Source: an uncultured Gammaproteobacteria bacterium
GTDB lineage: Bacteria > Patescibacteriota > Patescibacteriia > UBA11705 > JABHMO01
DNA: 64,000 bases
Assembly (NCBI GenBank): GCA_964590105.1
Contig: CAZPYM010000002.1
Location: forward strand, 218,697 to 282,696
Direction of reading: 5' to 3'
The notes beneath the pieces are model-generated. The model was not told the origin of the DNA and did not search any database. It saw only the letters and a program-made list of their open reading frames with translations. This document shows positions 10,128 to 54,949 of the stretch, piece by piece (position 1 is the stretch's first letter; each line of letters begins with the position of its first letter). A program made the translations under genes and the position numbers.

Positions 10128-10214
10128 TTCTTGACAAATCAATCGCAAAAACATAGAATATAAAAACTAGTTCATTTCAGTGTCTTCAGGAAAATAAACC
10201 AAAAGGGGGGCCCA

Positions 10215-10556
10215 ATGTACAGACCGGCGCATGACGTTCTATTTGATCGGATTGACCAGCTTGCCGAGCAAATGATCCAGCTCGCAGAATCCGGAGACGC
10301 TATCGGCGTCAAGGGAGAATTGAAAATCTTTGATCAGTTGTGTTTGGTGATTGAAGAAATGATTGTGCCGGAGCCTGAGCTGTCACGGCTTGTTGGCCGG
10401 TTGAATAGCATTGTCCTCAATCCAAGAGCATCTGATTGCCCGTCTCTGGTAGCCAGAATCAGAACTCTGGCAGCGAATTTGGAAAAGCGTTTCGGCAAGA
10501 AGATCCTCCTGCCATATGTACTAAGAGTTTTTGGAAAAAATGATCATCCTTCATAA
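10215..10556 (+). CDS. hypothetical protein (113 aa) in a GC-rich islet
   Basis: Canonical SD aaggggggcccaATG; own terminator downstream. Confidence 0.5.
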   Translation: MYRPAHDVLFDRIDQLAEQMIQLAESGDAIGVKGELKIFDQLCLVIEEMIVPEPELSRLVGRLNSIVLNPRASDCPSLVARIRTLAANLEKRFGKKILLPYVLRVFGKNDHPS

Positions 10557-10715
10557 TGAACTGGCTTCAGTCTGGGCAAGATTGCGTGATTGTGGTCAAG
10601 CATTATGTCAGGAAAAATTGCTCGTGTGGATTATTTTCTAGAGAGATTTAAAGAATTGAGACGTAATATCAACGAATATTGCAAGGAAAAACAATAAGGA
10701 CAAGCAATCAAATCA

Positions 10716-10740
10716 AACCCAATCAGATTGGGTTTTTTTG
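10716..10740 (+). terminator. rho-independent terminator
   Basis: aacccaatcagattgggttttttt. Confidence 0.6.
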
Positions 10741-10758
10741 TTTAATTTTAGTTAATGA

Positions 10759-10787
10759 TTGACAATAAATAATATTCGTGCTATTAT
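10759..10787 (+). promoter_or_regulatory. sigma70-like promoter: TTGACA, 17-nt spacer, TATTAT.
   Basis: ttgacaataaataatattcgtgctattat. Confidence 0.45.
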
Positions 10788-10825
10788 TAACAGTTATTTG
10801 TAAATTGACAACCAGGAGGGAAGAA

Positions 10826-12217
10826 ATGAAAAAGGTGGCTGTTTGGCTACTTGCTTGTGCGTTTATCGTCGCAGTCGCGGCGGTCATTGGATTCATAGTT
10901 TTATTTTTTCTTGGTCGCAGGGCAACCGAGCAGGAGTGGTCGGACAAGACGGCGCGTGAACGCACGCCCGCTGAAATTCGCGGTCTGATGCAGTCTATGG
11001 TGGAGACGCCGCAAAGTGTGCCGAATTTTGTCCCACAGTCGATGTTGGACGATGATGTTTGTTCGGCGGCTGTTTGCAATGCCGTGAACTTTACCGTCGG
11101 CCGAGAACTGCTGAAGTGCGGCGCGGCTTGGCGGTTTCCGAAAACGAATGAGCAGGCGATCTCCCGCACGGTTTTTGATCGGTCAAAAGATTTTTCAATC
11201 GTAACAAATTCCGACGGCAAGCGCCGGATTGTGGAGGATTACGATCGGAATTTTTGGCTGACCAGTCTCTTGGATCCGAACAAGCTGTACGTTGCCGGAT
11301 ACCATTACCACGATACTCTTCATGACGAAGAAATTGTGGCGGATGGAACCGGCCTCAACAGCCATCTGGCTTGGCTCTTGCCGTTGAAAGACGGACGGCG
11401 GTGGTGCTATCATCTGGTTCACCGGCCGAACCGGTGGGATGAAAATCCATACCGGGTTGAACCCGTTGACGAACTTCCGGATGAGTTCGATCTGATCTAC
11501 ATCTGGGAGCTGAAAGGCATTGTTCTGCCGGAAGCCGGTGACAAGATGGTGCTTGTAAACAGAAGCCTGCCGTTTTCCGAACTGCGGTTCTGGTTGAACA
11601 AAGGGCCGGCGTTTGCCGAGTACTACCTGGACACCGGACTGGTGTGGTTGCGCAATCAGTTTGGGAAATACGAACAGTTCCCGGTTGTGCAGAAGCTGGA
11701 CAACGGATTCATTGACTTTGGCGTAACCGGCAGGTTATACCACGGCACAGTGCTCGGAGCGTATGAGGGCGAGTATTTGCATGCTCATCTTGAATCGACT
11801 CGCGGGAAGTACGGCCTCGAGTATCAGTGCGTGGAATTTGTTAACCGATTTTATTCGCGTGTGCTCGGCCACCGCAATCTGACACAAACTGGACATGCTG
11901 ATTCGTATTTGTGGGAAGCGAACGAAAAGGGTTTGGTTGCCTACATGAATGGCTCAAAAACCAAACCTCAGGTGCACGACCTGCTGATTTTTGACGGAGG
12001 CGACGGCGACGGCGATCCCGGGCACCTGGCAGTTGTGATTTCGGTCAGTGATTCTGAAATCTGTTTTGTGCAGCAGAATTTCTACCGGAATAACGTGCCC
12101 GTGATCCGCGATTGCCTGCCCCTTGCCAAAATCAAAGGCAATTGGTTTGTTGATGCGGCTGATACGGATTACTTGCCGGTGGCGGGTTGGTCCAGAATCA
12201 AGGAATCGAAGAATTAG
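10826..12217 (+). CDS. membrane-anchored protein with a C-terminal CHAP-like amidase/peptidase domain
   Basis: SD accaggagggaagaaATG and an N-terminal TM. The C-terminal region has CHAP-like Cys...His blocks: EYQCVEFVNRFY ... GHLAVVISVSD. Confidence 0.5.
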   Translation: MKKVAVWLLACAFIVAVAAVIGFIVLFFLGRRATEQEWSDKTARERTPAEIRGLMQSMVETPQSVPNFVPQSMLDDDVCSAAVCNAVNFTVGRELLKCGAAWRFPKTNEQAISRTVFDRSKDFSIVTNSDGKRRIVEDYDRNFWLTSLLDPNKLYVAGYHYHDTLHDEEIVADGTGLNSHLAWLLPLKDGRRWCYHLVHRPNRWDENPYRVEPVDELPDEFDLIYIWELKGIVLPEAGDKMVLVNRSLPFSELRFWLNKGPAFAEYYLDTGLVWLRNQFGKYEQFPVVQKLDNGFIDFGVTGRLYHGTVLGAYEGEYLHAHLESTRGKYGLEYQCVEFVNRFYSRVLGHRNLTQTGHADSYLWEANEKGLVAYMNGSKTKPQVHDLLIFDGGDGDGDPGHLAVVISVSDSEICFVQQNFYRNNVPVIRDCLPLAKIKGNWFVDAADTDYLPVAGWSRIKESKN

Positions 12218-12436: not shown

Positions 12437-12620
12437 CACGGATTACAGATTTGCAGATTTGATGGCGGCAGGACAAGAAGTCACTTGAGGATTTCGTTAA
12501 ATTAGGGTAGAATGTAGATACAAGACGAATTTACGAGTTTTTACAAATATAACAAATAAACGGAGACAAGATTAATTTGTGATATTTGTTATTATTTGTA
12601 AATTTGTTTTACTTGTTAAT

Positions 12621-15449
12621 ATGAAAAAATACGATCACAAAAAAATTGAACGCAAGTGGCAGAAGTTTTGGGAAGATAACAAGTTTTATCGGGCTGAAGA
12701 CGGTTCACCAAAAGAAAAATATTACTGCCTGATTGAATTTCCTTATCCGTCCGGCGACGGACTGCACGTCGGCCATGTGCGCAGTTATACAGCGCTCGAT
12801 ATTATTGCCCGCAAAAAAAGAATGCAGGGATTTAATGTTTTGTACCCGATTGGCTGGGACGCCTTTGGATTGCCCGCAGAAAATTACGCCATCAAAACAG
12901 GTAAACACCCGACTATTATTACCAAGGAAAATGTAAAAGTTTTCACCAAGCAGATCAAAAGCTTGGGGATCAGCTTTGATTGGTCGCGCGAGATTAATAC
13001 TACTGATTCTGTCTATTACAAATGGACGCAGTGGATATTTCTTCAATTATATAAACATGGTTTGGCTTACAAAAAGAAAATGCCGATCAATTGGTGCCCG
13101 AGCTGCAAAATTGGTTTGGCCAATGAAGAAGTTATTGACGGTAAGTGCGAGCGTTGCGGCGCGGAAACGGAGAAAAGAGAATTGGAACAGTGGATGTTAA
13201 AAATTACCGCTTATGCCGATCGCCTGATTGAGGACTTGGAAACAGTTGAATATCTGGAAAAAATAAAAACTCAGCAGATCAATTGGATAGGACGAAGCGA
13301 GGGCGCGGAGGTGGATTTTCAAGTGAAAAATTTCAAAGATAATATTCGCGTTTTTACCACTAGGCCGGATACTTTGTTTGGCGCCACTTTTATAGTTTTG
13401 TCGCCCGAACATGAGTTGGTCAATGAAATTACAACCAAGGAGCAAGAGGCTGCAGTATTAAAGTATCAGGAAGAAGCGCGAAAAAAATCTGACTTGGAAA
13501 GGACTGAACTTCAAAAAGAAAAAACAGGTGTATTTACCGGCGCTTATGCTATTAACCCGGTTAATAAAAAGGAAATTCCGATTTGGATTGCCGATTATGT
13601 AATGATGAGTTATGGCACCGGCGCTATCATGGCCGTCCCCGCGCATGATGAAAGAGATTGGGCTTTTGCAAAAAAATATAAACTGGCAATTACCCTGGTT
13701 TTAATGCCTTTTATCCGGGCGCAAGAAAAAGACTTGCCGCGAGTAGACAAGAAAACAGTAAAACGAAATAATGTAATCGTTGTTTTAAAGCATTGGGCAG
13801 AAGAAAAATATTATTGTTTGGATTGGAAAAAATTCGGCTGGACTTCTTTTGTGGTCGGAGGAGTGGAAGATGGCGAAGACTTTGAAACAGCAGCCATTCG
13901 AGAAATGAAAGAAGAATCTGGCTATCAAAATATTAGATCAATAAAACGTTTGGGCGGGCAGATCGCCACAGAATTTTTTGCCCGGCATAAAGATGTTAAT
14001 CGCGAGACGATTATCGAGGGTTATTATATTGAACTTCAGGATGGTGAACGTATTTTGCCGGCGGAAGAAGATGTTCAGTATCACGATGGTCTATGGGTGG
14101 ACAAAGACAAAGTAAACACTTTTATTAATTTGGAAAATCATGCTTGGTATTTCGATATATTAATGAAAGGGGAACAGGTTTATTCCGGCGACGGCATCAA
14201 TATTAATTCTGATTTTTTGGATGGCCTAAAAACTGCTGACGCAAAGAAAAAGATTTCAGCTTGGCTAGAAAAAGAAGGGCTTGGCAAAAAATCGACTAAT
14301 TATCATCTCCGCGACTGGGTTTTTTCGCGCCAGCATTACTGGGGCGAGCCGATTCCAATGGTTTATTGCGTTGAGTGCGGCTGGCAGCCGATTGATGAAA
14401 AAGAACTGCCATTAAAATTGCCAATGGTAAAAAAATATGAGCCGACCGACACGGGCGAGTCGCCATTAGCTTCGATCGAAAAATGGGTAAATACAATTTG
14501 TCCAAAATGCAAAGGTAGAGCAAGACGAGAAACTGACACTATGCCAAATTGGGCTGGGTCGAGCTGGTATTTTCTGCGTTATGTTGATCCGGAAAACAAT
14601 GAAAAACTGGCTGACTTGGAAAAATTAAAATATTGGACACCTGTTGATTTGTATAATGGCGGCATGGAACACACAACTCTGCATTTGTTGTATTCCAGGT
14701 TTTGGCACAAATTCTTGTATGACATTGCGGCTGTGCCGACGCCGGAGCCGTATCAAAAGCGCGTTTCGCACGGCATGATTCTGGCGTCTGACAATCAAAA
14801 AATGTCAAAGTCCCGTGGCAATGTGCTGAATCCGGACCAAATTGTCGAAGAATATGGCGCCGATGCTCTGCGTCTTTATGAAATGTTCATGGGGCCGTAT
14901 GATCAGGCGGTGGCCTGGGACACAAATGGTCTGCGCGGTATAAAAAAGTTTTTGGATCGGGTTTGGGCGGCTGAAAACAGAGAAGATGACAAGGGGGTGA
15001 CTGCGCTACTTCACAAAACAATTAAAAAAGTTACTGAAGACATTGATAAAATGCATTTTAACACGGCAGTCGCGGCCATGATGATTCTCCTTAATAAAAT
15101 TCAGGAAGCCGGTTGTTCTAAACAAACATTTGAAAAGTTTTTGATTATGCTCAGTCCTTTTGCCCCGCATCTTGCCGAAGAAAAATGGAGCGCGCTGGGG
15201 AATGAGGCGGGTATTTCTTTGCAAAAATGGCCGCAGTTTGACGAAGCGCTGGTTATTGATGAGCAAATTCAAATTCCGGTGCAAATCAATGGCAAAGTGC
15301 GTGACAAACTTTTGGTCAGCGCAGATATTGTCGAGGAAGAGCTTAAAAAGTTGGCTCTGGCTAGCGACAAAGTGCAGAAACATTTGGCTGAACGGCAAGT
15401 GAAAAAAATTATTTATGTGACAGGCAGGTTGATCAGCATAGTTGTATAA
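12621..15449 (+). CDS. leuS: leucyl-tRNA synthetase carrying an internal Nudix-box-containing insertion
   Basis: HIGH-like HVGHVRSY, KMSKS, and the conserved blocks AVPAHDERDWAFA and LRDWVFSRQHYWGEPIP. The insert at about nt 13685-14290 contains GGVEDGEDFETAAIREMKEESGY. Confidence 0.9.
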   Translation: MKKYDHKKIERKWQKFWEDNKFYRAEDGSPKEKYYCLIEFPYPSGDGLHVGHVRSYTALDIIARKKRMQGFNVLYPIGWDAFGLPAENYAIKTGKHPTIITKENVKVFTKQIKSLGISFDWSREINTTDSVYYKWTQWIFLQLYKHGLAYKKKMPINWCPSCKIGLANEEVIDGKCERCGAETEKRELEQWMLKITAYADRLIEDLETVEYLEKIKTQQINWIGRSEGAEVDFQVKNFKDNIRVFTTRPDTLFGATFIVLSPEHELVNEITTKEQEAAVLKYQEEARKKSDLERTELQKEKTGVFTGAYAINPVNKKEIPIWIADYVMMSYGTGAIMAVPAHDERDWAFAKKYKLAITLVLMPFIRAQEKDLPRVDKKTVKRNNVIVVLKHWAEEKYYCLDWKKFGWTSFVVGGVEDGEDFETAAIREMKEESGYQNIRSIKRLGGQIATEFFARHKDVNRETIIEGYYIELQDGERILPAEEDVQYHDGLWVDKDKVNTFINLENHAWYFDILMKGEQVYSGDGININSDFLDGLKTADAKKKISAWLEKEGLGKKSTNYHLRDWVFSRQHYWGEPIPMVYCVECGWQPIDEKELPLKLPMVKKYEPTDTGESPLASIEKWVNTICPKCKGRARRETDTMPNWAGSSWYFLRYVDPENNEKLADLEKLKYWTPVDLYNGGMEHTTLHLLYSRFWHKFLYDIAAVPTPEPYQKRVSHGMILASDNQKMSKSRGNVLNPDQIVEEYGADALRLYEMFMGPYDQAVAWDTNGLRGIKKFLDRVWAAENREDDKGVTALLHKTIKKVTEDIDKMHFNTAVAAMMILLNKIQEAGCSKQTFEKFLIMLSPFAPHLAEEKWSALGNEAGISLQKWPQFDEALVIDEQIQIPVQINGKVRDKLLVSADIVEEELKKLALASDKVQKHLAERQVKKIIYVTGRLISIVV

Positions 15450-15543: not shown

Positions 15544-16182
15544 TCAGCTGACAGAAGTAGCGGGTCTGACCCGGATGACAATATCCACAAGTTCAGCCAG
15601 CTTGACGCTCATTTCGTATTCTTCGACCGTTTTCACGGCCTGTTTTTGAAGTTCGTCAGCTTCCGGCGGCTGGCCGCCAGAAGATTCGGACTGAAACGTG
15701 CTATCCGGCTGGCCAAAGACGGCCGCTTCTTTGACCTCGCGAGTTTCGCGATGCTCTGAAGCTTGAGCGCTCTTGTCAGTGAGGCCGGCCGGTCCGCAAA
15801 TAATCTGCGAATTCCTGTCGGCCAAACCGGCCGGTCCACACACGGTCTTCTGTTTGCCGCCGGCAAGGCCGGCGGGACCGCACATGATCTTCTGTTCGCC
15901 ACCGGCAAGGCCGGCAGGTCCGCAAATGATCTTTTGTTCGCCGCCGACAAGCCCGGCCGGTCCGCAAACGATCTGCGAATTTCTGTCGGCCAATCCGGCG
16001 GGACCGCACATGATCTTCTGTTCGCCGCCGACAAGACCGGCGGGACCGCACATGATCCCGTCATGTGCGCGGCTTTCGAGCGCCGCGAGCAATTCGCTGA
16101 TTTTTTCGTAGGATCGTGACATCATGAGGGCAATAAGCGCGAAACGCGCATCTTCTTTTGAAATGTGGGACTCTGCATTCAT
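15544..16182 (-). CDS. Cys/Gly/Pro tandem-repeat protein with seven 13-aa CGPAGL(V/A)GGEQKI-type repeats.
   Basis: SD ggaggag precedes the second ATG (16182). Seven in-frame 39-bp repeats follow. No signal peptide. Confidence 0.55.
   Translation of the reverse strand: MNAESHISKEDARFALIALMMSRSYEKISELLAALESRAHDGIMCGPAGLVGGEQKIMCGPAGLADRNSQIVCGPAGLVGGEQKIICGPAGLAGGEQKIMCGPAGLAGGKQKTVCGPAGLADRNSQIICGPAGLTDKSAQASEHRETREVKEAAVFGQPDSTFQSESSGGQPPEADELQKQAVKTVEEYEMSVKLAELVDIVIRVRPATSVS
15773..16060. repeat. 39-bp tandem repeat, about 7 copies, inside the coding sequence.
   Basis: ccggccggtccgca(a/c)a(t/c)ga tc... units; contiguous, with no spacers. Confidence 0.8.
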
Positions 16183-16555
16183 CTTTTTCTCCTCCATTCG
16201 GAGATGAATGATTTTGGGGGCTCATCATTTGAGCCGCTACCAATAAATTTGTTTTCAAGTAACAGTTTTCCTAATTAAATTATATAGTATATTAAGGCAA
16301 AGAAAAGATGTTTTGGGGAAAACTTTTCCTTTGTTTTGTCAAATTGAACAAAATAAACCAAAGGAATTTTATCTAATTGTTATTTGAAAAGTGTTAGTGA
16401 ATTTTGACAGTTAAAAACAAAAATTAGATTTATATTAGAAAAAGATGTCAGCCTTTGCCAACAGAATTGGTGGATAAAAAACAGGATTTGTTGTTAATAA
16501 CTGTTAACACATTTTCTTGTTGTTATGCTACAATAAAGTGGTAATTAGTACAAAT

Positions 16556-17305
16556 ATGTTAACACAGGAACTTCTAAGCATTGGTTTGTCAAATAAAGAA
16601 GCGGAAGTGTATTTGTCAGCGCTGCAGCTCGGATATTCATCAGTTCAGGAAATTGCCGCCAAATCAAGCATTAATCGAACAACGGCCTATACTCATATTA
16701 AAAATTTAATTGGCCGAGGTCTTTTGAGCGCAGTTGAAAAAAATGGCAAAGTTTATTACGTGGCGGAAAGACCGGACAAGCTTCAATATATTTACGAACA
16801 GCAGGAAAAGGAAGTCAAGCGCCGGCGGGAGATGCTCCAAAAAATAATGCCGCAGCTGGAATCAATTTACAACTTGGCCCAAGACAGACCCTCGGTGCGC
16901 TATTATAATTATACTGACAAAAACGATTTGGAATTAATCAGGCGGGAAATTGAGGAATTGCGCGCTGATGAAATATACAATATTTTTAATCAGGATCTTT
17001 TTGCCGATTATATAAACCGCCTGCACGTTCAAAATATTTTGGATTCAGTAAAGAAATTCAAAGTCCTGTACATTTCAAAAAATAAAATCATTGACCGTCG
17101 CGTTCAGCCGCTCGTGCAAGACGAAAAATTTCGTTTGAAATTTTTACCGGAAGCTAAGTTTAATTTTTTGTCTGAAGTGCTGATTGCCAATCAAAATGTT
17201 TACATTGCCGGTAACGGCGCCTGGATGATTATTTCCGATAAATTATTTTCACAAACTTTAACTTTACTGTTCCACGCATTGTGGGGAATAGCGGAAGACA
17301 TATAA
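16556..17305 (+). CDS. TrmB-family HTH transcriptional regulator (paralog 2)
   Basis: LSNKEAEVYLSALQLGYSSVQEIAAKSSINRTTAYTHIKNLIGRGLL. Confidence 0.65.
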   Translation: MLTQELLSIGLSNKEAEVYLSALQLGYSSVQEIAAKSSINRTTAYTHIKNLIGRGLLSAVEKNGKVYYVAERPDKLQYIYEQQEKEVKRRREMLQKIMPQLESIYNLAQDRPSVRYYNYTDKNDLELIRREIEELRADEIYNIFNQDLFADYINRLHVQNILDSVKKFKVLYISKNKIIDRRVQPLVQDEKFRLKFLPEAKFNFLSEVLIANQNVYIAGNGAWMIISDKLFSQTLTLLFHALWGIAEDI

Positions 17306-17310
17306 ATTAT

Positions 17311-18054
17311 ATGCTGGAAAAATCTCTGCGCGATTTTGGCCTCACAGACAAAGAAACAAAAGTTTATCTAGCTGCCCTGGAAATGGGAATATCTTCGATC
17401 CAGGAATTGTCCAGAAAGTCAGAAGTTAATCGCGCGACTACCTATATTCAAGTTGAATCCCTAAAAAACAAAGGGTTAGTTAGTGTAATCGAAAAAGATA
17501 AAAAAACTTTGATCATGGCCGAAAAGCCGCAAAGGATTTTGGAGATTTTGGATAAAAGAAAAAATGAAATTGAGTTAATTGAAAAAGGAATTAGCAAGCT
17601 AATGCCGGATTTGGAAGCGATTTACAATGTCAAAGCCGACCGTCCGCGCGTGCGCTTTATGGACACGCAGGCTGGATTTAATTTTTTTCTTGAAGAGATT
17701 ATGAAGCGCCGGCCGGAGGTTATTTTTAATTTATTGCCACAGGCGCATCAGCCGGTGTCGGATATTTTTTGCCGGCTGGTCAAGAAGGTCGGCCAGATAA
17801 AAATCGTCTATATGCTGCCGGAAAATGCAAATGACACCTTCAAAAGATTTTCTAATGTGCATTCCCGCTTTTATAAAATTGACAATTACATGCTGGAAAT
17901 ATTGATGTTCGAAAATCTTGTTGTGATGAACAAGCCTATTTTGCAAGAGAAAAAAAGTACAGCAATCATTATTGAGGACAAAATTTTTTTCCAAAGCTTT
18001 CATACTTTGTTCAATATATTCTGGGACGCCAGTGTGCCAGTTCTAAATGCGTGA
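17311..18054 (+). CDS. TrmB-family HTH transcriptional regulator (paralog 3), tandem to paralog 2.
   Basis: LTDKETKVYLAALEMGISSIQELSRKSEVNRATTYIQVESLKNKGLV. Confidence 0.65.
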   Translation: MLEKSLRDFGLTDKETKVYLAALEMGISSIQELSRKSEVNRATTYIQVESLKNKGLVSVIEKDKKTLIMAEKPQRILEILDKRKNEIELIEKGISKLMPDLEAIYNVKADRPRVRFMDTQAGFNFFLEEIMKRRPEVIFNLLPQAHQPVSDIFCRLVKKVGQIKIVYMLPENANDTFKRFSNVHSRFYKIDNYMLEILMFENLVVMNKPILQEKKSTAIIIEDKIFFQSFHTLFNIFWDASVPVLNA

Positions 18055-27158: not shown

Positions 27159-27899
27159 TTATCTTATACTATTCCAAACCAAATTCCAAATTGATTTCAT
27201 GGTTTGCGCGATGGCCTTGTCTTCAATAATCACTGCGGCATATGGTTTGCGGAAAGAGATTAAGGAAACTTTATTTTCGTAAATGTTTATTTCCGTTTCA
27301 AAATCAATGTCCGGCACCAGCCGTGTTTTGCGGAGCTGTTGTTGGTCCTTGTCTTTGATCAGCCGTCCCTTTGGCCCGTCTTTGGCTATGCAATAAAAAA
27401 AGCATTTGTTTTTCACGCGCGCCTCCGGCCCGGCCTGCCATAAAAAATCCTCGGGCAAAGTTTCAAACATTTTTTCATAATCTGTAAATCCGTATATTTT
27501 TCCGTCCGGAACAGAATAGTCGGCGTAAGCCGCGCGCAGGCCCTCGAGCCCTTGATAAAAGCGAACCTTGGGTTTTTTTGTTGGGCGATTGAAAATGCTT
27601 AAAATTTCTGGCAGGGCTTTTTGTACTTCATTTAGCCGTTCTTGCGCGCGCTTTAGCACAGTTTCCGGATTTTCCGGTGCCAGCAAAAGTTTTTTATTTT
27701 TTTTTATTTCGGTCAGCAGTCCGAGATTTTTCATTTCTTCCAAAAAATTATAAATACTGGTGCGTTTTACTTTTGATTTTTGCGCCAGTTCCTGAATCGT
27801 GGCAGAGCCCAACTCCAAGCAGGCTAAATACACTTCAGCTTGTCTTGGCTGAATGCCAAGTTTTGTTAGGGAATCGAGTAGGTATTTCATGTTTGTCAA
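27159..27899 (-). CDS. TrmB-family HTH transcriptional regulator (paralog 4), divergent from the radical-SAM operon.
   Basis: QPRQAEVYLACLELGSATIQELAQKSKVKRTSIYNFLEEMKNLGLL. Confidence 0.65.
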   Translation of the reverse strand: MTNMKYLLDSLTKLGIQPRQAEVYLACLELGSATIQELAQKSKVKRTSIYNFLEEMKNLGLLTEIKKNKKLLLAPENPETVLKRAQERLNEVQKALPEILSIFNRPTKKPKVRFYQGLEGLRAAYADYSVPDGKIYGFTDYEKMFETLPEDFLWQAGPEARVKNKCFFYCIAKDGPKGRLIKDKDQQQLRKTRLVPDIDFETEINIYENKVSLISFRKPYAAVIIEDKAIAQTMKSIWNLVWNSIR

Positions 27900-33852: not shown

Positions 33853-34419
33853 CTATACAATTCGCTGTGCTAAGAAAAGATCGAGCTGGGCAAAGGAGGC
33901 TACGTAGCCTTTTTTCTGATAAATTCCTATGCGATCGATTTCCGCTTGAACTTGATCATCGGTAAATGACTGGCCGGTCGGATTAAGCAATGAAACCAGC
34001 GAGATTTCCCGATGACAGTTGGCCTTTTGCAGGGTTTGCAAAAAGGTCAGAAAGCAACGCGGTAGGTGATACGCGGCGGTTGTCAGAATGACGTGTCCGA
34101 CCTGCTGATGCTTGAGCAACAAATCACGCGCCCATTCCCTTTGCCATAAAGTATGTTTTGCCCAGCCGCCGCAGAGAATGTCAGGAGAATCAGTTCGAAC
34201 ATATTGGACAACATCTTCCCGCGAATATAGCGGGTCATCCCTTGTCCCGGCAACCCAGAGATGCTTTGCCTTCCGCGGCCACAATTTTGTTCCTTGTTCA
34301 ATTCGCCAATTCTGATATTGGCCGGGCATGATTAGTATGGCGCTTTGTTCAGGCGAAAATTTTTCCGCAAAGGGAATGCTGAGAATTTCAATCATTCGGC
34401 GACAGATTTCAAGGGACAT
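33853..34419 (-). CDS. DUF218 (YdcF/ElyC/SanA-like) family protein
   Basis: ILIMPGQ, HLWVAGT and VILTTAAYHLPR blocks. Confidence 0.55.
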   Translation of the reverse strand: MSLEICRRMIEILSIPFAEKFSPEQSAILIMPGQYQNWRIEQGTKLWPRKAKHLWVAGTRDDPLYSREDVVQYVRTDSPDILCGGWAKHTLWQREWARDLLLKHQQVGHVILTTAAYHLPRCFLTFLQTLQKANCHREISLVSLLNPTGQSFTDDQVQAEIDRIGIYQKKGYVASFAQLDLFLAQRIV

Positions 34420-34516
34420 TATTTCCCTCCAACCTATGATTTACTGCAATTACGGCGATTGGTTATTATAATGAATAAAAATTAAAATGTCAAGTGTGTG
34501 TTTTTGAAAAATTTTG

Positions 34517-34552
34517 AAACAAAAAACTGCAACTCGTGTAAGTTGCAGTAGG
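34517..34552 (-). terminator. hairpin terminator; copy 1 of a duplicated 36-nt element
   Basis: aaacaaaaaactgcaactcgtgtaagttgcagtagg. On the minus strand this is a hairpin followed by a T-run. Confidence 0.6.
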
Positions 34553-34581
34553 ATTGTTGTCTGTTTCCTTTATTGCGTTTA

Positions 34582-36342
34582 CTACCAGGGCAACGCGTCG
34601 AGAACGGTCCTTGTAATAAACATACTATCTGGAGAGAGATAGTTCGCTATCCCCCAAACTATCCAAGGCAAGACGGCCCATTTCCATGCATTTTGCCAAC
34701 GCACTTGTACATAACCCCCCAATAGAACTAGAAGAGGGTCCCCGATTAAACGATTGGACCAATGTTCGTGCCCAACTTTCCAGGCCGACACTCCTTTTCC
34801 TAAAATTCCCAATTCAAGAAGGTATTCCATGAGCTCCCATCCGTATGCAATGGCGAGCGTGATACTGAGTAGCTTCATTACTGAAAGCTTTGGGCAGAAG
34901 CGCTTCAGGGATGCAAGTACGACTACGCCCCAGAGAAAGTGCTCAATAGACCACATGTCGAGCATCACCGCTTCTCTGTCGATGCCATACTTTTCTGGCA
35001 CAACAAGGCAGATAGCGAGTAGCCCGATCAGGGTATCATGGAGAATGATCATGGGTTTTGAGATACTTGTCGGATCCCACTTTACAAATTTGTAAACCAA
35101 GAATACCAGAAATGCCAGCAGCTCATTCGCCTTATTTGTAAGAAAGATGAAAAAGCCGGAGAGCGTGGATATGGACAAGGCGATCCACTTGGCGGGTGAA
35201 GTTCCCAGCGTGACTGGCAAAGTGTTTTTGTGTCCTGTGTCAATGGTCACATCTTCAATGTCCTTGATAATCTCTCGCCCAAGGATCAAAGTGAAGAACA
35301 CACTGTACCAAGTCCAGATATACGCATCGTTCCTCTGGAAAAATACTGAACCGCACAGGACAGGGCTTGCGCCACATCCAGCCACGATCAGATTGTTAAT
35401 AACAACCAATTTCTGGAGGTATGAGTAGGCAAGGCCAAGCACTAGAATGCCAAAGCAGAAAAGTGCCACGACAGTATTTAACGTTGCAAGTATACTGATC
35501 GTTGTCAAGGTGAGCCCTGTGAGTCTGACCCAATATGACCAGAATGCCTTAGGATGATCATACGCCAACCGTTTTCCCTTTTGCAAGTCGTGGCTTCGAT
35601 CATACCAATCATTGAAAGTCATGATGGACATGTGTAGCAGTGAGCAGGACAGCGCTGTAAACAAAGCGACCATCCAGTCTATGTGATTCTCCCCATACAT
35701 TACAAATCCGGATAAGGCGAGGAGAAATGTGAAGATAGTCCCCCGGATCCTTCCGGTTTTCACGAACTCAACGAGTGGCGGCGCCTGCGATTCGAGCGGG
35801 TTTTTATGACCGAGGATTACGTCTACCAAAACCGCGCTGAGAAACACTAGATATCCAGCCACAATCAAATAGCTCGGCGTCTTTTCAATATTTCCAGACA
35901 AAACATGCAAAAGACAGATACTTGAAACGGCCACGTTCACTCCAAAATACACAAGGTGAACTTTACCGCCAAGACTGACCTTGCCAGGCGCTGGAAAGCT
36001 CCAATTGGGTTTATACTTCTGATGTGTCCCGACTCTGTACCACGACCAGATCCCAAATATGGAAAGGAAAAGAAAGATTAACCACTCTCCAAGTTCGATC
36101 CGTCCGTACCAGGCCAGGTGTGCAAAGCCTGAGACGACCAGCCCGAGTCCAACCATGTCGCCCCAAGTTTGACAATGGGCGTCTTGCCAATGATTGAATT
36201 TTTGGTTTGTGCCGTGGATGGCACTACCGCGCGCAGGGATTTTCCCTTTTTTTAGTTCCCATTGCTGCACAAGATATTGCAATAGGCAAGCGATCCCGTT
36301 CAAGAGGAGGCTTGCCAGGACGAGAGTCCAGTTCGGTGTCAT
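34582..36342 (-). CDS. UbiA-family prenyltransferase fused to additional N- and C-terminal polytopic membrane domains (586 aa)
   Basis: NDWYDRSHD (NDxxDxxxD) and a second Asp-rich motif KDIEDVTIDTGHKNTLP. Confidence 0.65.
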   Translation of the reverse strand: MTPNWTLVLASLLLNGIACLLQYLVQQWELKKGKIPARGSAIHGTNQKFNHWQDAHCQTWGDMVGLGLVVSGFAHLAWYGRIELGEWLIFLFLSIFGIWSWYRVGTHQKYKPNWSFPAPGKVSLGGKVHLVYFGVNVAVSSICLLHVLSGNIEKTPSYLIVAGYLVFLSAVLVDVILGHKNPLESQAPPLVEFVKTGRIRGTIFTFLLALSGFVMYGENHIDWMVALFTALSCSLLHMSIMTFNDWYDRSHDLQKGKRLAYDHPKAFWSYWVRLTGLTLTTISILATLNTVVALFCFGILVLGLAYSYLQKLVVINNLIVAGCGASPVLCGSVFFQRNDAYIWTWYSVFFTLILGREIIKDIEDVTIDTGHKNTLPVTLGTSPAKWIALSISTLSGFFIFLTNKANELLAFLVFLVYKFVKWDPTSISKPMIILHDTLIGLLAICLVVPEKYGIDREAVMLDMWSIEHFLWGVVVLASLKRFCPKLSVMKLLSITLAIAYGWELMEYLLELGILGKGVSAWKVGHEHWSNRLIGDPLLVLLGGYVQVRWQNAWKWAVLPWIVWGIANYLSPDSMFITRTVLDALPW

Positions 36343-36421
36343 GTGACGCCTCCTTTTGATTGTAGTTGATTGTCGAAGTCCAAAATTATTTTATAATTTT
36401 AGAAGGACATTGTCAAAGTGC

Positions 36422-36457
36422 AAACAAAAAACTGCAACTCGTGTGAGTTGCAGTAGG
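36422..36457 (-). terminator. hairpin terminator; copy 2 of the duplicated 36-nt element (35/36 identical)
   Basis: aaacaaaaaactgcaactcgtgtgagttgcagtagg. Confidence 0.55.
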
Positions 36458-36629
36458 TGTAGGAAAGAAGGGGCGACTGACACAAGCTTGTGTCTTTTTT
36501 CTGCCTGCGGACTTTGGATACCGCGCGATACGCCGAGGCGCAAAGGGTCGTGCCGAGGGCTTTCTTAATCCCCACGGCCTCCCTATCGCTTAACAGATCT
36601 TGGACACATTGACTTGTGCCAGCCACCAG

Positions 36630-36703
36630 TGGAGCCAGAAGGAATCGAACCTTCGCCTTCCGCTACGCAAGAACGGCGCTCTGCCGGTCTGAGCTATGGC
36701 CCC
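36630..36703 (-). tRNA. tRNA-Ala (anticodon TGC)
   Basis: Cloverleaf GGGGCCATAGCTCAG...CTTGCGT...GGTTCGATTCC...TGGCTCCA with the G3:U70 identity pair; CCA is not encoded. Confidence 0.85.
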
Positions 36704-36970
36704 AGTTGAGAAAAAGAATTTTGGTAAAGCCCGCATATCTCCCGTTTAGCAGGATCAAGGAGAATATGCGGTTTTGCCGGCGAGGACTTTGCATCTGGTA
36801 ATGAACGGGTTCAACTGCCATGCGTCGGAAGTGCAGTCGGGAAGTAGTTCTTTCCGGCCCCGCGATAGCGCTTCCGTGGCACGCACAGTCACCGCCGCCA
36901 TTGCTGGTCGTATTGCCGGAGTTAGCGAAGCTCCGGTAATCAACCCTTCAGCCTCCTGCAAGGCCAATCG

Positions 36971-37043
36971 TGCGCCCAAAGGGATTCGAACCCTTGACCC
37001 TCGGATTAAAAGTCCGATGCTCTACCAACTGAGCTACGGGCGC
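36971..37043 (-). tRNA. tRNA-Lys (anticodon TTT)
   Basis: GCGCCCGTAGCTCAGTTGGTAGAGCATCGGACTTTTAATCCGAGGGTCAAGGGTTCGAATCCCTTTGGGCGCA. Confidence 0.9.
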
Positions 37044-48689: not shown

Positions 48690-48760
48690 GAGGTAAAAGT
48701 TAAAAGGGAAAAGTTAAAAGTTAAAAGTTAAAAGTTGAAAGGTGAAATGTGAAATTTCAA
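48690..48760. repeat. tandem (A)AAGTTAAAAG heptamer-like repeats (about 5 copies) followed by gtgaaat/atttcac-like dyads
   Basis: aggtaaaagttaaaagggaaaagttaaaagttaaaagttaaaagttgaaaggtgaaatgtgaaatttcaatgtcac. Confidence 0.7.
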
Positions 48761-51147: not shown

Positions 51148-54027
51148 ATGACTAAATTCACCAAACTATTTATTTTATCAACAGTGGTTTTAATATTACT
51201 GCAATCTTTTAATTTAATATATTTTGTTTCAGTTCCGACTGCTCTGGCCTCTGCGAAACAGTGCGACTGTGCAGGAACTTCATATCCGCCGGCTGATCCG
51301 TGCACTGCCGCATGCGTAGGTAAGCTTCCTTTGGTTACGGACGTGTGCGTTTGCGATGACGGAACAGTAGAAGATATAAAATTGCCGACTGATACTTGTG
51401 CTGTCTTGTGCCCGGTGGCGCCCCCGCCTACGCCTAAGCCTACGTCCCCTGCTCCTTCAGGAACACCAAAATCCACTCCGTCGGCGGTTCCAAAGGCTGG
51501 CTTTAATTTGGAAGAAGCGAAGATCAATATTCAGTTCGGCGATCTGCCTACGAGTTTTACGGCCGTGGATGAGGCGCCGTGCAAATGCACCCCCGCGGAA
51601 AAAGCAAAAGATGCAAAATATTGCGAGGATTATGAAAAGAAAATGTGCATCCGTATTCCCTGGGTTGCTCAATATCTGAATGCGGTTTATCGCTATGGCG
51701 TGACGCTCGGATCATTGCTTGCTGTATTAATGTTGATGATCGGCGGGGTGATGTACATGATGGGCGGACTGAATCAGACCATGATTTCCAAAGCCAAGAG
51801 CATGATGTCCGGCGCGGTTTTAGGTTTAATCTTATTGCTCGGCACTTATGTTTTGTTGAATACTATTAACCCGAATTTAATAAAATTGGAACCGATAAAG
51901 ATTGAGGTAGTCAGAGAGAAGGGGATTTCTTCCTTTACTTTTTGTAATGAGGTGCCAGCAGCTAAGTACAAGGTGACTGATAATACGTGTGGCCAGGAAG
52001 GTTCGTATGAAATAAAAGATAAAAGTATTGACGAAGAACCTGGCAAGTGTATTGGCTCTATATGTAAGCCATCGGCAGATGGGCACAAACAATGGTGTTT
52101 GCCGTCACCAGAAGACAAAGCGATGAAAGAAAATAAAGTTACTTGTATTGACGCCGCGGTTTGGGGATATCTGAAGTATGATGATGGCAGGTTTTTGGAT
52201 TCGATAGGTTTATATGCTTTGGGAGGATATAGTGATGCGGATTGTGTAGCATTAGATAGTGACGCTACTTCCACCTGCGCCGACCCGATTAAAGATAACC
52301 CAGGAGACGGCGATAAAGTATATTATATTAGATGGAGTGATATAAAGGCCGCTGTGGCGAGTAAAAAATCGAGTGCAAAAGATTCATATATGCTGATGAT
52401 TGAACTTAATGATACCGGGGCGTCCAACGCCGCTGTCACCAATTCCAAAATTGTTGTTGCTACCCAGGCGGGCATGAGTTGGATTGGCTTTGACGGAACA
52501 ATTGACGATGAGTATTATGTCGCTCTAAATCCGGAAAATCCTATTAGCACAGAAAAAGATAATGAGGCTTATAATGGTATATGGATAGAGCCTTGCGACA
52601 CTACTGTTGTTTGGATGAGTCCCAAGGGGGAGGGCTGGATGTCCGGCGGACTCCCAGCGGAAAAAGGGAAAAAGTGGAAAACAATGAGGGCTTATGATGT
52701 TGAAACTAGTGGTATTAGATTAGATATTGATTCAAAAGATTTTCAAGAGGACGCGGATATTGATTGTTCTTTAGCTGATAAAATGTTCGGTGCTTCATTG
52801 AAGGTTGGAGCAATATGTGGAAGTAATAAGGAGTGTCTTAGCGATGATTGTGAACTGGAGCAGGGATCAAAGAGATGTGAATGTAATGAAGATGAAGATT
52901 GCAAAAATGAAGTTGCTCCGGGAGATCCGCAAAAAGACAAGTTAGTTTGCGCCACCTCTTGGAATATTTGGAATAGTTGTATTGTGGGTAAGGCAATTGG
53001 CGCATCTTGTTCGGACAATAGCCAGTGCAACAGCGGTAGTTGTTCCGGCGGAAAGTGCGAATGTTCAAAAAAAGAGGATTGTGCATATCAGCCTTATAGT
53101 ACAGCACCGGATTTTTTCAAGAAGAAAAAGATAGACGGAGTTTTGTATGGTTATGCCTGCATTAAAAATATATTTTCGGCAAATGAGTGTAAGTATAAGA
53201 GAGAGCAAGGTGAAGCCTGTGATAAGGCTGAGCAATGTATCAGCAATAATTGTGTGGGTGGATCTTGTATGTGCGATGACGATGCTGACTGTCCAGAAGG
53301 ATCATATTGCGAAACCGTGACCGGTGCTTGTATGTTGCAGCATCTTAATTTGGAAATATGTGACGAGGGAAATAACAAATCTTGTTATAAGGGCATGGAT
53401 TGCGAGGAAGACCACTGGTATGGTGAGGGAACTACAGAAACGCGATGCGAATGTAACAATAATGAAGATTGTGGGCCGGATGCCGTTTGTATTGACATTG
53501 AGGATGGTTGCGGTTGGAATTATTGTCTTGCGAACGACGTGGGTGCGCCTGGTGTGCCATATGGCTATAGCTCTGTTGGTGATTCAACTGTAGTTGCGTC
53601 GCAAAAATATTGGGGACTTTGTGATGCTGATTCCGATTGCGCCGGTACAGCTTTGTCGCCGGGTGATTGTATAACAGATTGGGGAAAGAATAATTGTAAT
53701 GCTTGCAAGAGCACTGATGGAACAGCTTTGATAGGGGGAAAATGTCCTAGTTCTGATAAAGATGCTTGTGGCTATAAGCTTTTTTGTACAGATGAGTGGA
53801 GCACAAATATTTGTGCTCCCGCGTCAGCTATCGCCTGCGGCATCAACGATAGTTTGTGCGTTGGTGGTGGATGGAAAAAGGGAACTTGCGAGGGAACCCT
53901 TTGCGATTGTGGTGGCGATGATGACTGTTCGGCTGGTTATCTGTGTGCAAATAATACGTCCGGTGAGTATAACGGCAACGATATGTGCATCCCTGATTCA
54001 TACAAAGATATTGCTGATAACCTTTAA
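51148..54027 (+). CDS. secreted 959-aa cysteine-rich protein with an embedded T4SS-pilin-like (PF18895-type) transmembrane hairpin
   Basis: Signal peptide. IGGVMYMMGGLNQTMISKAKSMMSGAVLGLILLLGTYVLLNTINPNLI matches the GG..YM.GGN...AK...IGL...IVNxI pilin pattern. About 720 aa of CxxxxC/CxSxxC modules follow. Confidence 0.6.
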   Translation: MTKFTKLFILSTVVLILLQSFNLIYFVSVPTALASAKQCDCAGTSYPPADPCTAACVGKLPLVTDVCVCDDGTVEDIKLPTDTCAVLCPVAPPPTPKPTSPAPSGTPKSTPSAVPKAGFNLEEAKINIQFGDLPTSFTAVDEAPCKCTPAEKAKDAKYCEDYEKKMCIRIPWVAQYLNAVYRYGVTLGSLLAVLMLMIGGVMYMMGGLNQTMISKAKSMMSGAVLGLILLLGTYVLLNTINPNLIKLEPIKIEVVREKGISSFTFCNEVPAAKYKVTDNTCGQEGSYEIKDKSIDEEPGKCIGSICKPSADGHKQWCLPSPEDKAMKENKVTCIDAAVWGYLKYDDGRFLDSIGLYALGGYSDADCVALDSDATSTCADPIKDNPGDGDKVYYIRWSDIKAAVASKKSSAKDSYMLMIELNDTGASNAAVTNSKIVVATQAGMSWIGFDGTIDDEYYVALNPENPISTEKDNEAYNGIWIEPCDTTVVWMSPKGEGWMSGGLPAEKGKKWKTMRAYDVETSGIRLDIDSKDFQEDADIDCSLADKMFGASLKVGAICGSNKECLSDDCELEQGSKRCECNEDEDCKNEVAPGDPQKDKLVCATSWNIWNSCIVGKAIGASCSDNSQCNSGSCSGGKCECSKKEDCAYQPYSTAPDFFKKKKIDGVLYGYACIKNIFSANECKYKREQGEACDKAEQCISNNCVGGSCMCDDDADCPEGSYCETVTGACMLQHLNLEICDEGNNKSCYKGMDCEEDHWYGEGTTETRCECNNNEDCGPDAVCIDIEDGCGWNYCLANDVGAPGVPYGYSSVGDSTVVASQKYWGLCDADSDCAGTALSPGDCITDWGKNNCNACKSTDGTALIGGKCPSSDKDACGYKLFCTDEWSTNICAPASAIACGINDSLCVGGGWKKGTCEGTLCDCGGDDDCSAGYLCANNTSGEYNGNDMCIPDSYKDIADNL

Positions 54028-54028
54028 G

Positions 54029-54949
54029 ATGTTTATGCCATACCAAATGCCATTTAATCATTTACTAAATCCCGGACACTCGGCCTGCGCAGGTTGTGGT
54101 GAGATTTTGGCTATGCGGCATGTGCTCGCGGCGGCGGGGGGAAATACGATTATTGCCAATGCCACCGGTTGCAGTGAAGTGACAACTACTCGCTACCCGA
54201 TGAGCGCATTCAAAGTTCCATGGATTCACGCCAACTTTGAAAACGCCGCGGCAGTCGCGTCCGGTGTTTTAGCGGCTTTAAACTTTAAGCGTCAATTAAC
54301 CAATCAACCAATTAACCAATCAACCAATATCCTTGCCTGGGGAGGCGATGGCGCTACTTTTGACATTGGATTTGGTTTAATCTCTGGGTCTTGGTACCGG
54401 CGGGAAAATATTTTATATGTTTGTTTTGACAATGAAGCTTATGAAAACACGGGGATTCAAGCCAGCGGAGCCACTCCGCTTGGCGCCAATACCACGACTA
54501 CTCCGTCGGGCAAAGTTTCATTTGGCAATCAGCTGAAAAAAAAGGACATGGTGAAAATCGCGCTGGCGCATGAATGCGTTTATGTTGCCACGGCCACAGT
54601 CGGCAATGTGATTGACATCGGGAACAAAGTAAAAAAAGCTTTGCAAATTCCCGGTCCCAAATATTTGCAAATACTCTGCACCTGCGTGCCGGGCTGGCAT
54701 ACTGATTCAAAGGATACTATTACTATAGCCAAACTCGCTCAACAAACCGGGATTTATCCGATTGTTGAATATGAGAACGGCAAACTAACGAACGCAGTTA
54801 AATGTCCGAAACCGCGACCAAAAGTTGAAGAATATTTCAAATTGCAAGGACGCTATAAACATTTATTCAAGTCGGATGAAGGCAAAGCGGAGATAGAATT
54901 AATTCAAAAAATCGCGGATGAGAATGTGGAGAAATACGATTTGCAATAA
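54029..54949 (+). CDS. porB: PFOR beta subunit (TPP-binding)
   Basis: GHSACAGCGE and GGDGATFDIG TPP motifs. ATG lies 2 nt after the upstream stop. Confidence 0.85.
   Translation: MFMPYQMPFNHLLNPGHSACAGCGEILAMRHVLAAAGGNTIIANATGCSEVTTTRYPMSAFKVPWIHANFENAAAVASGVLAALNFKRQLTNQPINQSTNILAWGGDGATFDIGFGLISGSWYRRENILYVCFDNEAYENTGIQASGATPLGANTTTTPSGKVSFGNQLKKKDMVKIALAHECVYVATATVGNVIDIGNKVKKALQIPGPKYLQILCTCVPGWHTDSKDTITIAKLAQQTGIYPIVEYENGKLTNAVKCPKPRPKVEEYFKLQGRYKHLFKSDEGKAEIELIQKIADENVEKYDLQ

Follow-up and report, generated by a model that had tools for sequence, protein, structure and literature searches.

This study concerns a single gene, and the two hairpins that enclose it, in a stretch of DNA from an uncultured bacterium of the Kuenenbacteria, within the Patescibacteria, or Candidate Phyla Radiation (CPR). 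The stretch (hereafter the window) is 64,000 nucleotides long and corresponds to positions 218,697 to 282,696 of contig CAZPYM010000002.1. The gene lies on the minus strand and encodes a 586-aa protein in which a UbiA-superfamily prenyltransferase core is joined to a further membrane module at either end, the C-terminal one being probably a Lipocone domain. On balance, we favour the explanation that this UbiA-fusion gene and its hairpins form a hairpin-bounded unit, exchanged between lineages as a block, and that the unit encodes a three-module UbiA-Lipocone enzyme.

The two hairpins are copies of one 36-mer, AAACAAAAAACTGCAACTCGTGT[A/G]AGTTGCAGTAGG, which is found at 34517-34552 and at 36422-36457, the copies being identical at 35 of 36 positions as stated in a preliminary description of this DNA. 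On the minus strand, each copy consists of a 10-bp stem with four to five G-C pairs, a 4-nt loop and then U6GUUU. Their hairpin energies are -16.2 and -15.0 kcal/mol (z -5.3 and -5.6), and they rank first and fourth of 21 terminator-like minus-strand sites between 30 and 43 kb, which agrees with the terminator-like character ascribed to them initially. Judged from sequence, both have the attributes of intrinsic terminators, namely a stable G+C-containing stem-loop that runs directly into a stretch of U and closes a transcription unit at its 3′ end. The upstream copy (36422..36457, minus strand; hairpin 1, stem 36454-36431) is the putative terminator of a tRNA operon and forms the outer edge of the block discussed below. 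The downstream copy (34517..34552, minus strand; hairpin 2, stem 34549-34526) lies 29 nt past the stop codon of the UbiA-fusion gene, is its putative terminator and forms the other edge of the block.

Read in the direction of the gene, the order of elements is tRNA-Lys, tRNA-Ala, a 171-nt spacer, hairpin 1, a promoter, a ribosome-binding site, the open reading frame (ORF; 34582-36342, minus strand), hairpin 2, a second promoter and a DUF218-like gene, such that a promoter of the TTGACA-N17 type for the next unit sits directly 3′ of each hairpin. The promoter of the UbiA-fusion gene is sigma-70-like (TTGACA-17-TAAAAT, 11/12; 36388..36416, minus strand) and is conserved in the nearest relative, and a Shine-Dalgarno sequence, GGAGG, can be read from the sequence 6 nt before the ATG (36349..36353, minus strand). 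We read the gene as one complete, insulated transcription unit, bounded by the tRNA-operon terminator and its own terminator.

No further copy of the 36-mer with up to three mismatches is present in the window, with 0 found in 100 shuffles, and the remaining terminators of the region have sequences unrelated to it. A relaxed stem-plus-T-run pattern was found at 22 loci in 185,579 species genomes, of which 21 are singletons in unrelated taxa; the pattern is therefore a common terminator shape and nothing more. The remaining match is the single one in the assembly of Kuenenbacteria bin.190, where it stands at the site orthologous to hairpin 2. The exact 36-mer core has 0 matches in Joint Genome Institute (JGI) metagenome contigs and 0 in viral contigs. 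At one homologue (P0002) the downstream terminator is a different hairpin, and bracketing repeats were not found at distant family loci.

Kuenenbacteria bin.190 (GenBank contig JABMRF010000053.1; locus L001) is the nearest sampled species. The closest database protein (P0001; 91% identity) bears no annotation beyond ‘UbiA family prenyltransferase [Candidatus Kuenenbacteria bacterium]’. Six public contigs encode the window protein exactly, with both hairpins in the three places inspected (L026-L028). L001 is syntenic with the window through TrpRS, a polyprenyl-phosphate sugar phosphotransferase and two glycosyltransferase family 4 (GT4) genes on one side of the gene, and through two radical S-adenosylmethionine (SAM)/SPASM genes, a B12-radical SAM gene and TrmB on the other. 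In blastn comparisons, window positions 36459-34519 align to L001 positions 9880-11824 at 88.9% over 1945 bp, and this aligned block takes in both hairpins and stops exactly at their outer edges. Directly outside the hairpins no blastn homology to L001 was detected, the alignment ending within about 2 nt of each outer edge, and the syntenic neighbours align at only 66-78%.

Synonymous divergence (dS; Nei-Gojobori, NG86) between the UbiA-fusion gene and its L001 counterpart is 0.43 (bootstrap interval 0.35-0.52) and is uniform across the three domains, with values of 0.44, 0.35 and 0.54. The corresponding values for the neighbours, which are 64-77% identical between the two species, are 1.77 (TrpRS), 1.81 (sugar phosphotransferase), 1.70 and 2.81 (GT4a and GT4b) and 2.15 (radical SAM), and third-position identity is 78% in the gene against 40-54% in its neighbours. 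The 79-nt non-coding leader can be aligned to L001 ungapped, with 70 of 79 positions identical (89%), whereas the other intergenic regions fail to align. Low synonymous and non-coding divergence of this kind is beyond the reach of protein constraint, and the two species therefore share a more recent ancestor for the block than for the surrounding chromosome. Cassette-like recombination, which had been suggested from the direct repeats, gains support both from the difference in dS (0.43 against at least 1.7) and from the arrest of homology at the hairpins.

The flanks of the block have different contents in the two species. Upstream, tRNA-Lys, tRNA-Ala and the 171-nt spacer of the window correspond to three extra ORFs and tRNA-Lys/Glu/Thr/Arg in L001. 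On the downstream side, the hairpin of the window is followed by the DUF218-like gene and a 250-aa gene, and that of L001 directly by ORF86, then ORF170; in the window, the ORF86 homologue is found at a further distance of 1.6 kb. The tRNA content at this shared locus is thus Lys and Ala in the window (36629-37043) and Lys, Glu, Thr and Arg in L001 (9047-9874), and this difference marks the tRNA array adjoining the block as a rearrangement hot spot. Between tRNA-Thr and tRNA-Arg, L001 also contains a 58-aa ORF with a ribosome-binding site and two CxxC pairs (zinc-ribbon-like; 9616-9792, plus strand), which is not present in the window.

A four-way alignment of the hairpins revealed one stem-loop type common to both window copies and the L001 downstream copy; the loop of the L001 upstream copy is longer and of another kind. 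A TTTTTTGTTT tail is present on both window copies, and in L001 only on the upstream copy. Moreover, the window upstream hairpin matches the L001 downstream hairpin (32/35) better than it matches the L001 upstream hairpin. The window upstream hairpin thus appears to be a chimera, combining a downstream-type body with an upstream-type tail and promoter, as would be yielded by gene conversion or by a recombination junction between two hairpins. We infer that the block was exchanged by recombination between the lineages after their split. The short hairpin sequences would mark the crossover points, and perhaps supplied them, and in the window lineage one hairpin would have been overwritten by the other.

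The protein encoded by this unit is organised around its UbiA core (aa 196-411; 35110..35757, minus strand), which was delimited by Pfam, invariant residues, Foldseek and a PDB profile search. Pfam UbiA (PF01040) matches aa 207-414 with 78.3 bits against a cut-off of 34.2 (E 7.5e-22). Both Asp-rich UbiA motifs of the preliminary description, which serve to bind Mg2+ and diphosphate, are present: NDWYDRSHD (aa 244-252, 35587-35613) fits NDxxDxxxD, and DIEDVTID (aa 361-368, 35239-35262) fits DxxDxxxD. Residues N244, D245, D248, D252, D361, D364 and D368 are invariant in a family alignment of eight sequences, which suggests that the core is probably active. The top Foldseek matches of the full model are 4tq3, 6m31, 7bpu and 4od4, representing AfUbiA, digeranylgeranylglyceryl phosphate synthase (DGGGPS) and ApUbiA, with target-normalised template modelling (TM) scores of 0.58-0.68. 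A 20-sequence core profile searched against PDB retrieved MjDGGGPS (6m31, E 5.1e-14), ApUbiA (5.9e-5) and AfUbiA (6.9e-3), and no other solved UbiA enzymes (MenA, UBIAD1 or COX10 chains).

Among curated models, the best NCBIfam matches are of the archaeal DGGGPS type, with 55.6 bits against a cut-off of 269 and 40.3 against 296; for the DGGGPS equivalogs the scores are 40.3 bits (NF009521, cut-off 296), 29.8 bits (NF009522, cut-off 353) and 24.8 bits (NF009512, cut-off 278). The heme O synthase model TIGR01473 reaches 25.5 bits against 210.3, and the MenA models of NCBIfam do not match the window protein, such that the core did not turn out to be an ordinary MenA or heme O enzyme, as had been considered possible, and DGGGPS is its best relative of solved structure. 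From these comparisons the core is classed as a divergent UbiA subfamily nearest DGGGPS, and neither as an ordinary quinone or heme enzyme nor as a demonstrated DGGGPS. It resembles archaeal DGGGPS (M. jannaschii, PDB 6M31/7BPU) in fold class, in both Asp-rich motifs and in having it as the best solved relative by profile; it differs in its position between two extra membrane domains, in its CPR bacterial host and in scores far below the equivalog cut-offs. A gene for geranylgeranylglyceryl phosphate (GGGP) synthase, or another isoprenoid-lipid gene, was not detected among the scanned window ORFs.

The C-terminal module (aa 412-586; 34585..35109, minus strand) is a probable cpCone-type Lipocone domain, as indicated by alignments, an AlphaFold2 model and family signatures. 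In 58 sequences, D462, W464, H468, W502, E503, E506, E510, W521, E526, N530, D535 and G542 are invariant; in the numbering of the alignment, the pattern reads D51-x5-H57, E92-x2-E95, E99, D124 and G131. The AlphaFold2 model of the module (predicted local distance difference test, pLDDT, 86; predicted TM score, pTM, 0.77) has the conserved residues on the consecutive helices 463-482, 488-511 and 528-548, with helix 552-569 next. No significant family match to the C-module was obtained in Pfam, NCBIfam or PDB. The recurrent weak Pfam matches are DUF2585 (4/58 sequences, best E 7.6e-4), DUF2238 (4/58) and Pyr4-TMTC (3/58), and no others.

DUF2585 and DUF2238 have both been placed in the Lipocone superfamily (Burroughs, Nicastro and Aravind, bioRxiv 10.1101/2025.01.14.632903). 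In that preprint, the Lipocone domain is described as a four-helix cone with a His on helix H2, a Glu on H3, an Asp on H4, an acidic residue ending H3 and a capping Gly on H4, and Lipocone domains are predicted to act at the outer face of the membrane. The cpCone clade is further distinguished by an Asp (a polar residue, usually Asp) six positions before the His, by a second Glu three after the Glu and by H1 located behind H4. It comprises PTDSS1/2, which are phosphatidylserine synthases, prokaryotic PTDSS, cpCone-1 of Patescibacteria and cpCONE-DUF2585 (bioRxiv 10.1101/2025.01.14.632903).

Measured against this description, the C-module has H468, E503, D535, E510 and G542 invariant on three consecutive helices, as for Lipocone domains in general, and invariant D462-x5-H468 and E503-x2-E506, as for cpCone domains. 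In both the clade and the C-module, an Asp/His, a Glu/Glu with helix-end acidic residue and an Asp/Gly pattern are thus arrayed on successive helices, with one more helix. In the model, the latter is helix 552-569, which follows the H4 equivalent. Taken together, these features make membership of the cpCone type probable, if only by a modest degree, and on the published description such a domain is predicted to be a phosphate-linked lipid head-group transferase or esterase. A fusion of UbiA with a cpCone domain is so far not listed in the available parts of the text and Table S1 of the preprint (bioRxiv 10.1101/2025.01.14.632903). The nearest arrangement that it describes is that of operons with a YfiM-1 Lipocone and a UbiA-like enzyme, read as making a modified polyisoprenoid lipid (bioRxiv 10.1101/2025.01.14.632903). 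These operons resemble the fusion protein in pairing a UbiA-family enzyme with a Lipocone domain, but the genes are separate, occur in Calditrichota, the FCB (Fibrobacteres-Chlorobi-Bacteroidetes) group and Gemmatimonadetes, and are accompanied by amidophosphoribosyltransferase, RidA, HD and PHP genes; YfiM-1 is, moreover, another Lipocone clade, which is said there to have no domain fusions (bioRxiv 10.1101/2025.01.14.632903).

The N-terminal module (aa 1-195; 35758..36342, minus strand) has five predicted helices, no curated model and stand-alone forms in Patescibacteria. Its conserved loops read RGSxIxGTxQxFxxWQD and HKPxWxxPxxGxxSxGGxxH, with a terminal D...GH. No relatives of the N-module were detectable in Pfam, NCBIfam or PDB, and hhalign revealed no relation to the C-module or the UbiA core. 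A single weak MenA match for one member (P0042, E 4.6e-4) did not recur in the rest of the family. In the structure model, the approximately 195 aa before the core and 175 aa after it are extra helical membrane segments, as expected from the polytopic domains originally described at both ends. The full-length model has a pLDDT of 63, with 70-89 in the UbiA core, and a full-length profile retrieved no relatives of solved structure.

Homologues of the complete protein are few, with only seven in a collection of 5.8 billion proteins. A profile search of 1.84 billion representatives at 50% identity yielded two three-module clusters and one UbiA+C cluster. Each module is also encoded singly, at about 185-200 aa for N, 250-320 aa for the UbiA core and 140-200 aa for C. 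When all fetched loci were searched by tblastn, one protein (P0004) proved to be a three-module protein with a mis-called start, and four loci (L029, L030, L043 and L044) encode a two-module UbiA+C protein and have no gene for the N-module in their vicinity, which leaves UbiA and the C-module as the constant partners. Where the C- or N-module is encoded alone, in Komeilibacteria, Nomurabacteria, other Patescibacteria and a Treponema, the gene carries the label ‘hypothetical protein’. On the Treponema contig (L037; 7460-8447, 13251-14699), a 148-aa C-module homologue comes immediately after an HD-domain gene, and an amidophosphoribosyltransferase gene is situated 5 kb away, a context that echoes the HD/PurF-type setting described in the preprint for the YfiM-1 and UbiA operons; L037 has no UbiA gene. 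In another architecture, which is common and is exemplified by P0012 and P0015 (about 485-530 aa), the same UbiA subfamily is fused to a different N-terminal domain; this domain of about 215 aa bears DDxxD-like motifs (IDDLLDFEND, for instance), is not matched by Pfam and may be a terpene- or prenyl-diphosphate-synthase-like partner.

Other explanations of the locus have to be weighed against that of an exchanged unit. The gene could be an ordinary vertical one between two ordinary terminators, alike only because of local gene conversion or because both converged on an effective terminator sequence; unusually strong constraint on the gene would then account for the low divergence, and the breakpoints would fall at the hairpins since rearrangements fall between transcription units. 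The hairpins are indeed located where terminators are expected, the gene occupies the same general locus in both species, the window has no detected mobility gene and distant homologues have different terminators. However, a fourfold lower synonymous divergence is not produced by protein-level constraint, the leader is conserved where other intergenic regions are not, and the window upstream hairpin is closer to the relative's downstream hairpin than to its positional counterpart, so that we regard vertical descent as unlikely, though far from negligible. A site-specific mobile cassette, entering in integron-like fashion at terminators behind tRNA operons, with the hairpin as an attC- or att-like site and the recombinase encoded elsewhere, would account for direct repeats that bracket a single gene, for flanks that differ between the species next to a tRNA operon in both, and for a chimeric upstream hairpin as the recombination junction of two hairpins. 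Hairpin-forming direct repeats around a single gene, an adjacent tRNA and variable flanks are likewise features of integron cassettes and tRNA-adjacent islets. Unlike integron cassettes, the unit has its own promoter, its repeat lies outside the tRNA, and its hairpin is a plain terminator with a perfect 10-bp stem and T-run. The imperfect R/L boxes and the extrahelical bases that characterise attC are missing from it, and CTGCAAC/GTTGCAG departs from the RYYYAAC/GTTRRRY consensus. Neither integrase nor transposase turned up in the window, where ORFs of at least 110 aa were scanned, or among the called genes of L001. The 36-mer is present just twice in the window and is matched once in the genome of the relative, and the viral and JGI metagenome contigs contain no match; we consider a site-specific cassette improbable.

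The same counts bear on the idea that the 36-mer is a dispersed repeat, of the repetitive extragenic palindromic (REP) or miniature inverted-repeat transposable element (MITE) type, or a generic terminator whose bracketing of the gene is coincidental. The relaxed pattern does occur singly across unrelated bacteria, but two copies in 64 kb, where none is expected by chance, among window terminators otherwise unrelated, and a lone match in the relative at the orthologous site led us to reject a dispersed element and to hold coincidence for very improbable; a generic terminator at many loci, which the preliminary description had allowed for, was not what the searches returned. A last alternative touches the protein rather than the block, and takes the C-module for a Pyr4-like transmembrane terpene cyclase, which would make the protein a prenyltransferase-cyclase for a cyclised meroterpenoid or terpenoid. 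Fungal meroterpenoid pathways combine UbiA-type prenyltransferases and Pyr4-type cyclases. Weak PF25129 (Pyr4-TMTC) matches were obtained for the three family members mentioned above (best E 0.013, P0023), and DDxxD-like motifs occur in the N-terminal domain of those UbiA-core relatives that reach about 485 aa. The best of these matches, however, reaches 15.6 bits against a gathering threshold of 27 and covers positions 167-218 of 227, the matches being confined to the last 50-80 positions; the conserved core from D462 to the C-terminus (about 125 aa) is too small for the 7-helix Pyr4 fold, and D-x5-H, E-x2-E, D and G agree throughout with the cpCone description. We accordingly give a Pyr4-like cyclase little credence.

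Under the preferred explanation of an exchanged UbiA-Lipocone unit, a division of labour across the membrane can be proposed for the enzyme, whose modules are fused in one chain with their catalytic residues intact. In the solved UbiA enzymes ApUbiA and AfUbiA, the Asp-rich loops are cytoplasmic and the chain ends outside after TM9. Helix counting from this canonical topology would put the conserved loops of the N-module on the cytoplasmic side, beside the UbiA active site, and the D/H/E/D cluster of the C-module at the outer face. At the inner face, the UbiA core would move a polyprenyl chain from polyprenyl diphosphate onto a phosphate-bearing lipid acceptor, possibly assisted by the N-module. 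At the outer face, the Lipocone module would then exchange or cleave the phosphate-linked head group of the resulting isoprenoid lipid, thereby giving a modified lipid carrier or envelope lipid; substrates, reaction order and sidedness are conditional throughout on this scheme. A specific ether-lipid role of the gene is, in the same sense, hypothetical.

Several observations weigh against the favoured explanation, in its evolutionary or in its biochemical part. Only one other species was compared, and two genomes fix neither the direction, nor the donor, nor the timing of an exchange. As rearrangements fall between genes anyway, the coincidence of breakpoints with hairpins could be partly fortuitous, and neither an empty site, nor a circular form, nor a recombinase was seen. 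Distant family members have other terminators without a bracketing repeat, and the association with the hairpin is thus lineage-specific rather than a property of the gene family. As to the protein, the UbiA core scores far below every curated equivalog cut-off. The Lipocone assignment is made without a statistically strong profile match: the C-module model has no Foldseek match below E 3 and its sequence no match in PDB, and an hhalign comparison with E. coli YjdF (DUF2238) brings the motifs into register but stays short of significance (E 0.16). No UbiA gene or partner module was found within 8-10 kb of the stand-alone C-module loci L033, L034 and L037 or of the N-module locus L039. Finally, the mediocre quality of the full-length model makes the topology argument soft.

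Beyond the block, the 171-nt spacer that separates tRNA-Ala from hairpin 1 (36458..36628, minus strand) is GC-rich and structured, with about 55% GC compared with 42-47% nearby and a fold of -74.3 kcal/mol (z -4.7). A long stem pairs its two ends, and on the plus strand a palindrome followed by T6 is present at 36479-36500. The spacer matches no Rfam family and has no BLAST match to L001, and it may be an unannotated structured RNA of the tRNA operon. This operon ends with tRNA-Ala(UGC) (36629..36703, minus strand; ARAGORN, Rfam tRNA 61.2 bits), preceded by tRNA-Lys(UUU) (36970-37043, minus strand). The 266-nt spacer between the two tRNA genes (36704-36969, minus strand) folds with z -2.1, and the 303-nt spacer between tRNA-Glu and tRNA-Thr in L001 (9207-9509, plus strand) with -108.7 kcal/mol and z -5.5; an Rfam search of both assigned them to no family. 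On the other side of the block, a perfect sigma-70-like promoter (TTGACA-17-TATAAT; 34465..34493, minus strand) serves the next, unrelated unit. This is the DUF218-like gene (33853-34419), which is not found at the corresponding position in L001 and has its own terminator (33844-33819), unrelated in sequence to the 36-nt hairpins.

The genes around the unit include the sugar phosphotransferase, the GT4 glycosyltransferases and the DUF218/ElyC-like gene, a neighbourhood that is compatible with an envelope or lipid-carrier role, to which we attach little weight, and that is not conserved in distant family members. The radical SAM genes, which the preliminary description had placed upstream and had joined to the UbiA-fusion gene in one pathway, are in fact downstream, at lower coordinates and on the opposite strand. 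The genes between them and the UbiA-fusion gene vary between the window and L001, the two are unlinked in L002, L003, L029 and L030, and synteny of the radical SAM/SPASM pair is confined to the closest species; a joint pathway is thus not supported. The rest of the window is ordinary CPR chromosome, with genes for translation initiation factor IF-2, thioredoxin and its reductase, LeuRS, TrpRS, RNase J, RNase P RNA and UvrA, and also for subunits of pyruvate:ferredoxin oxidoreductase (PFOR), glycosyltransferases and TrmB regulators.

Some of these genes have peculiarities of their own. LeuRS (12579-15449, plus strand) is of unusual architecture, in that its editing domain is followed by an inserted NUDIX domain (aa 420-512, E 7.4e-11). 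A tandem repeat of 42 nt, or 14 codons, is present in at least seven copies of 69-79% identity at 15782-16075, inside a 217-aa ORF without Pfam match (15544-16197, minus strand), and 14-nt tandem repeats (AAAAGTTAAAAGGG-like) directly follow the PFOR gamma-subunit gene at 48691-48746. Between the PFOR subunit genes, a 959-aa ORF without Pfam match (51148-54027, plus strand) overlaps the start of the ORF for the thiamine pyrophosphate (TPP)-binding subunit (53762-54949), and could represent either a wrongly called frame or an insertion of unusual kind within the PFOR cluster. Four TrmB-family regulator paralogues are located within 20 kb of one another (8713-9486, 16517-17305, 17281-18054 and 27159-27899).

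The annotation of this gene family as ‘UbiA family prenyltransferase’ is already public. In the literature and databases searched, as far as the sources were accessible, we did not find the three-module architecture, the probable UbiA-Lipocone fusion, the distribution of stand-alone N- and C-modules or the terminator-to-terminator exchange signal.

Most CPR bacteria or Patescibacteria have no recognisable lipid synthesis, and the source and tailoring of their membrane and envelope lipids is an open question. The fusion described here is a Rosetta stone in this respect, since in it a DGGGPS-like UbiA enzyme is joined with a predicted lipid head-group transferase and with a 5-helix family that is widespread but has no curated model. 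It thereby gives functional leads for two uncharacterised membrane families of Patescibacteria and for the prediction, made for the Lipocone superfamily, of action on isoprenoid lipids. As a long shot, the unit might be a portable, self-expressed single-gene lipid module, in which the DGGGPS-like core would make an isoprenoid phospholipid precursor of archaeal type at the inner membrane face and the fused PTDSS-like domain would swap its head group at the outer face, and which would have spread among CPR bacteria via terminator hairpins with no dedicated recombinase; if so, lipid-auxotrophic CPR bacteria could build or remodel isoprenoid membrane lipids. The locus also offers a clean natural case of one terminator-to-terminator unit exchanged between species while the surrounding chromosome diverged, and such a unit bears on gene flux in tiny genomes that are poor in mobile elements.

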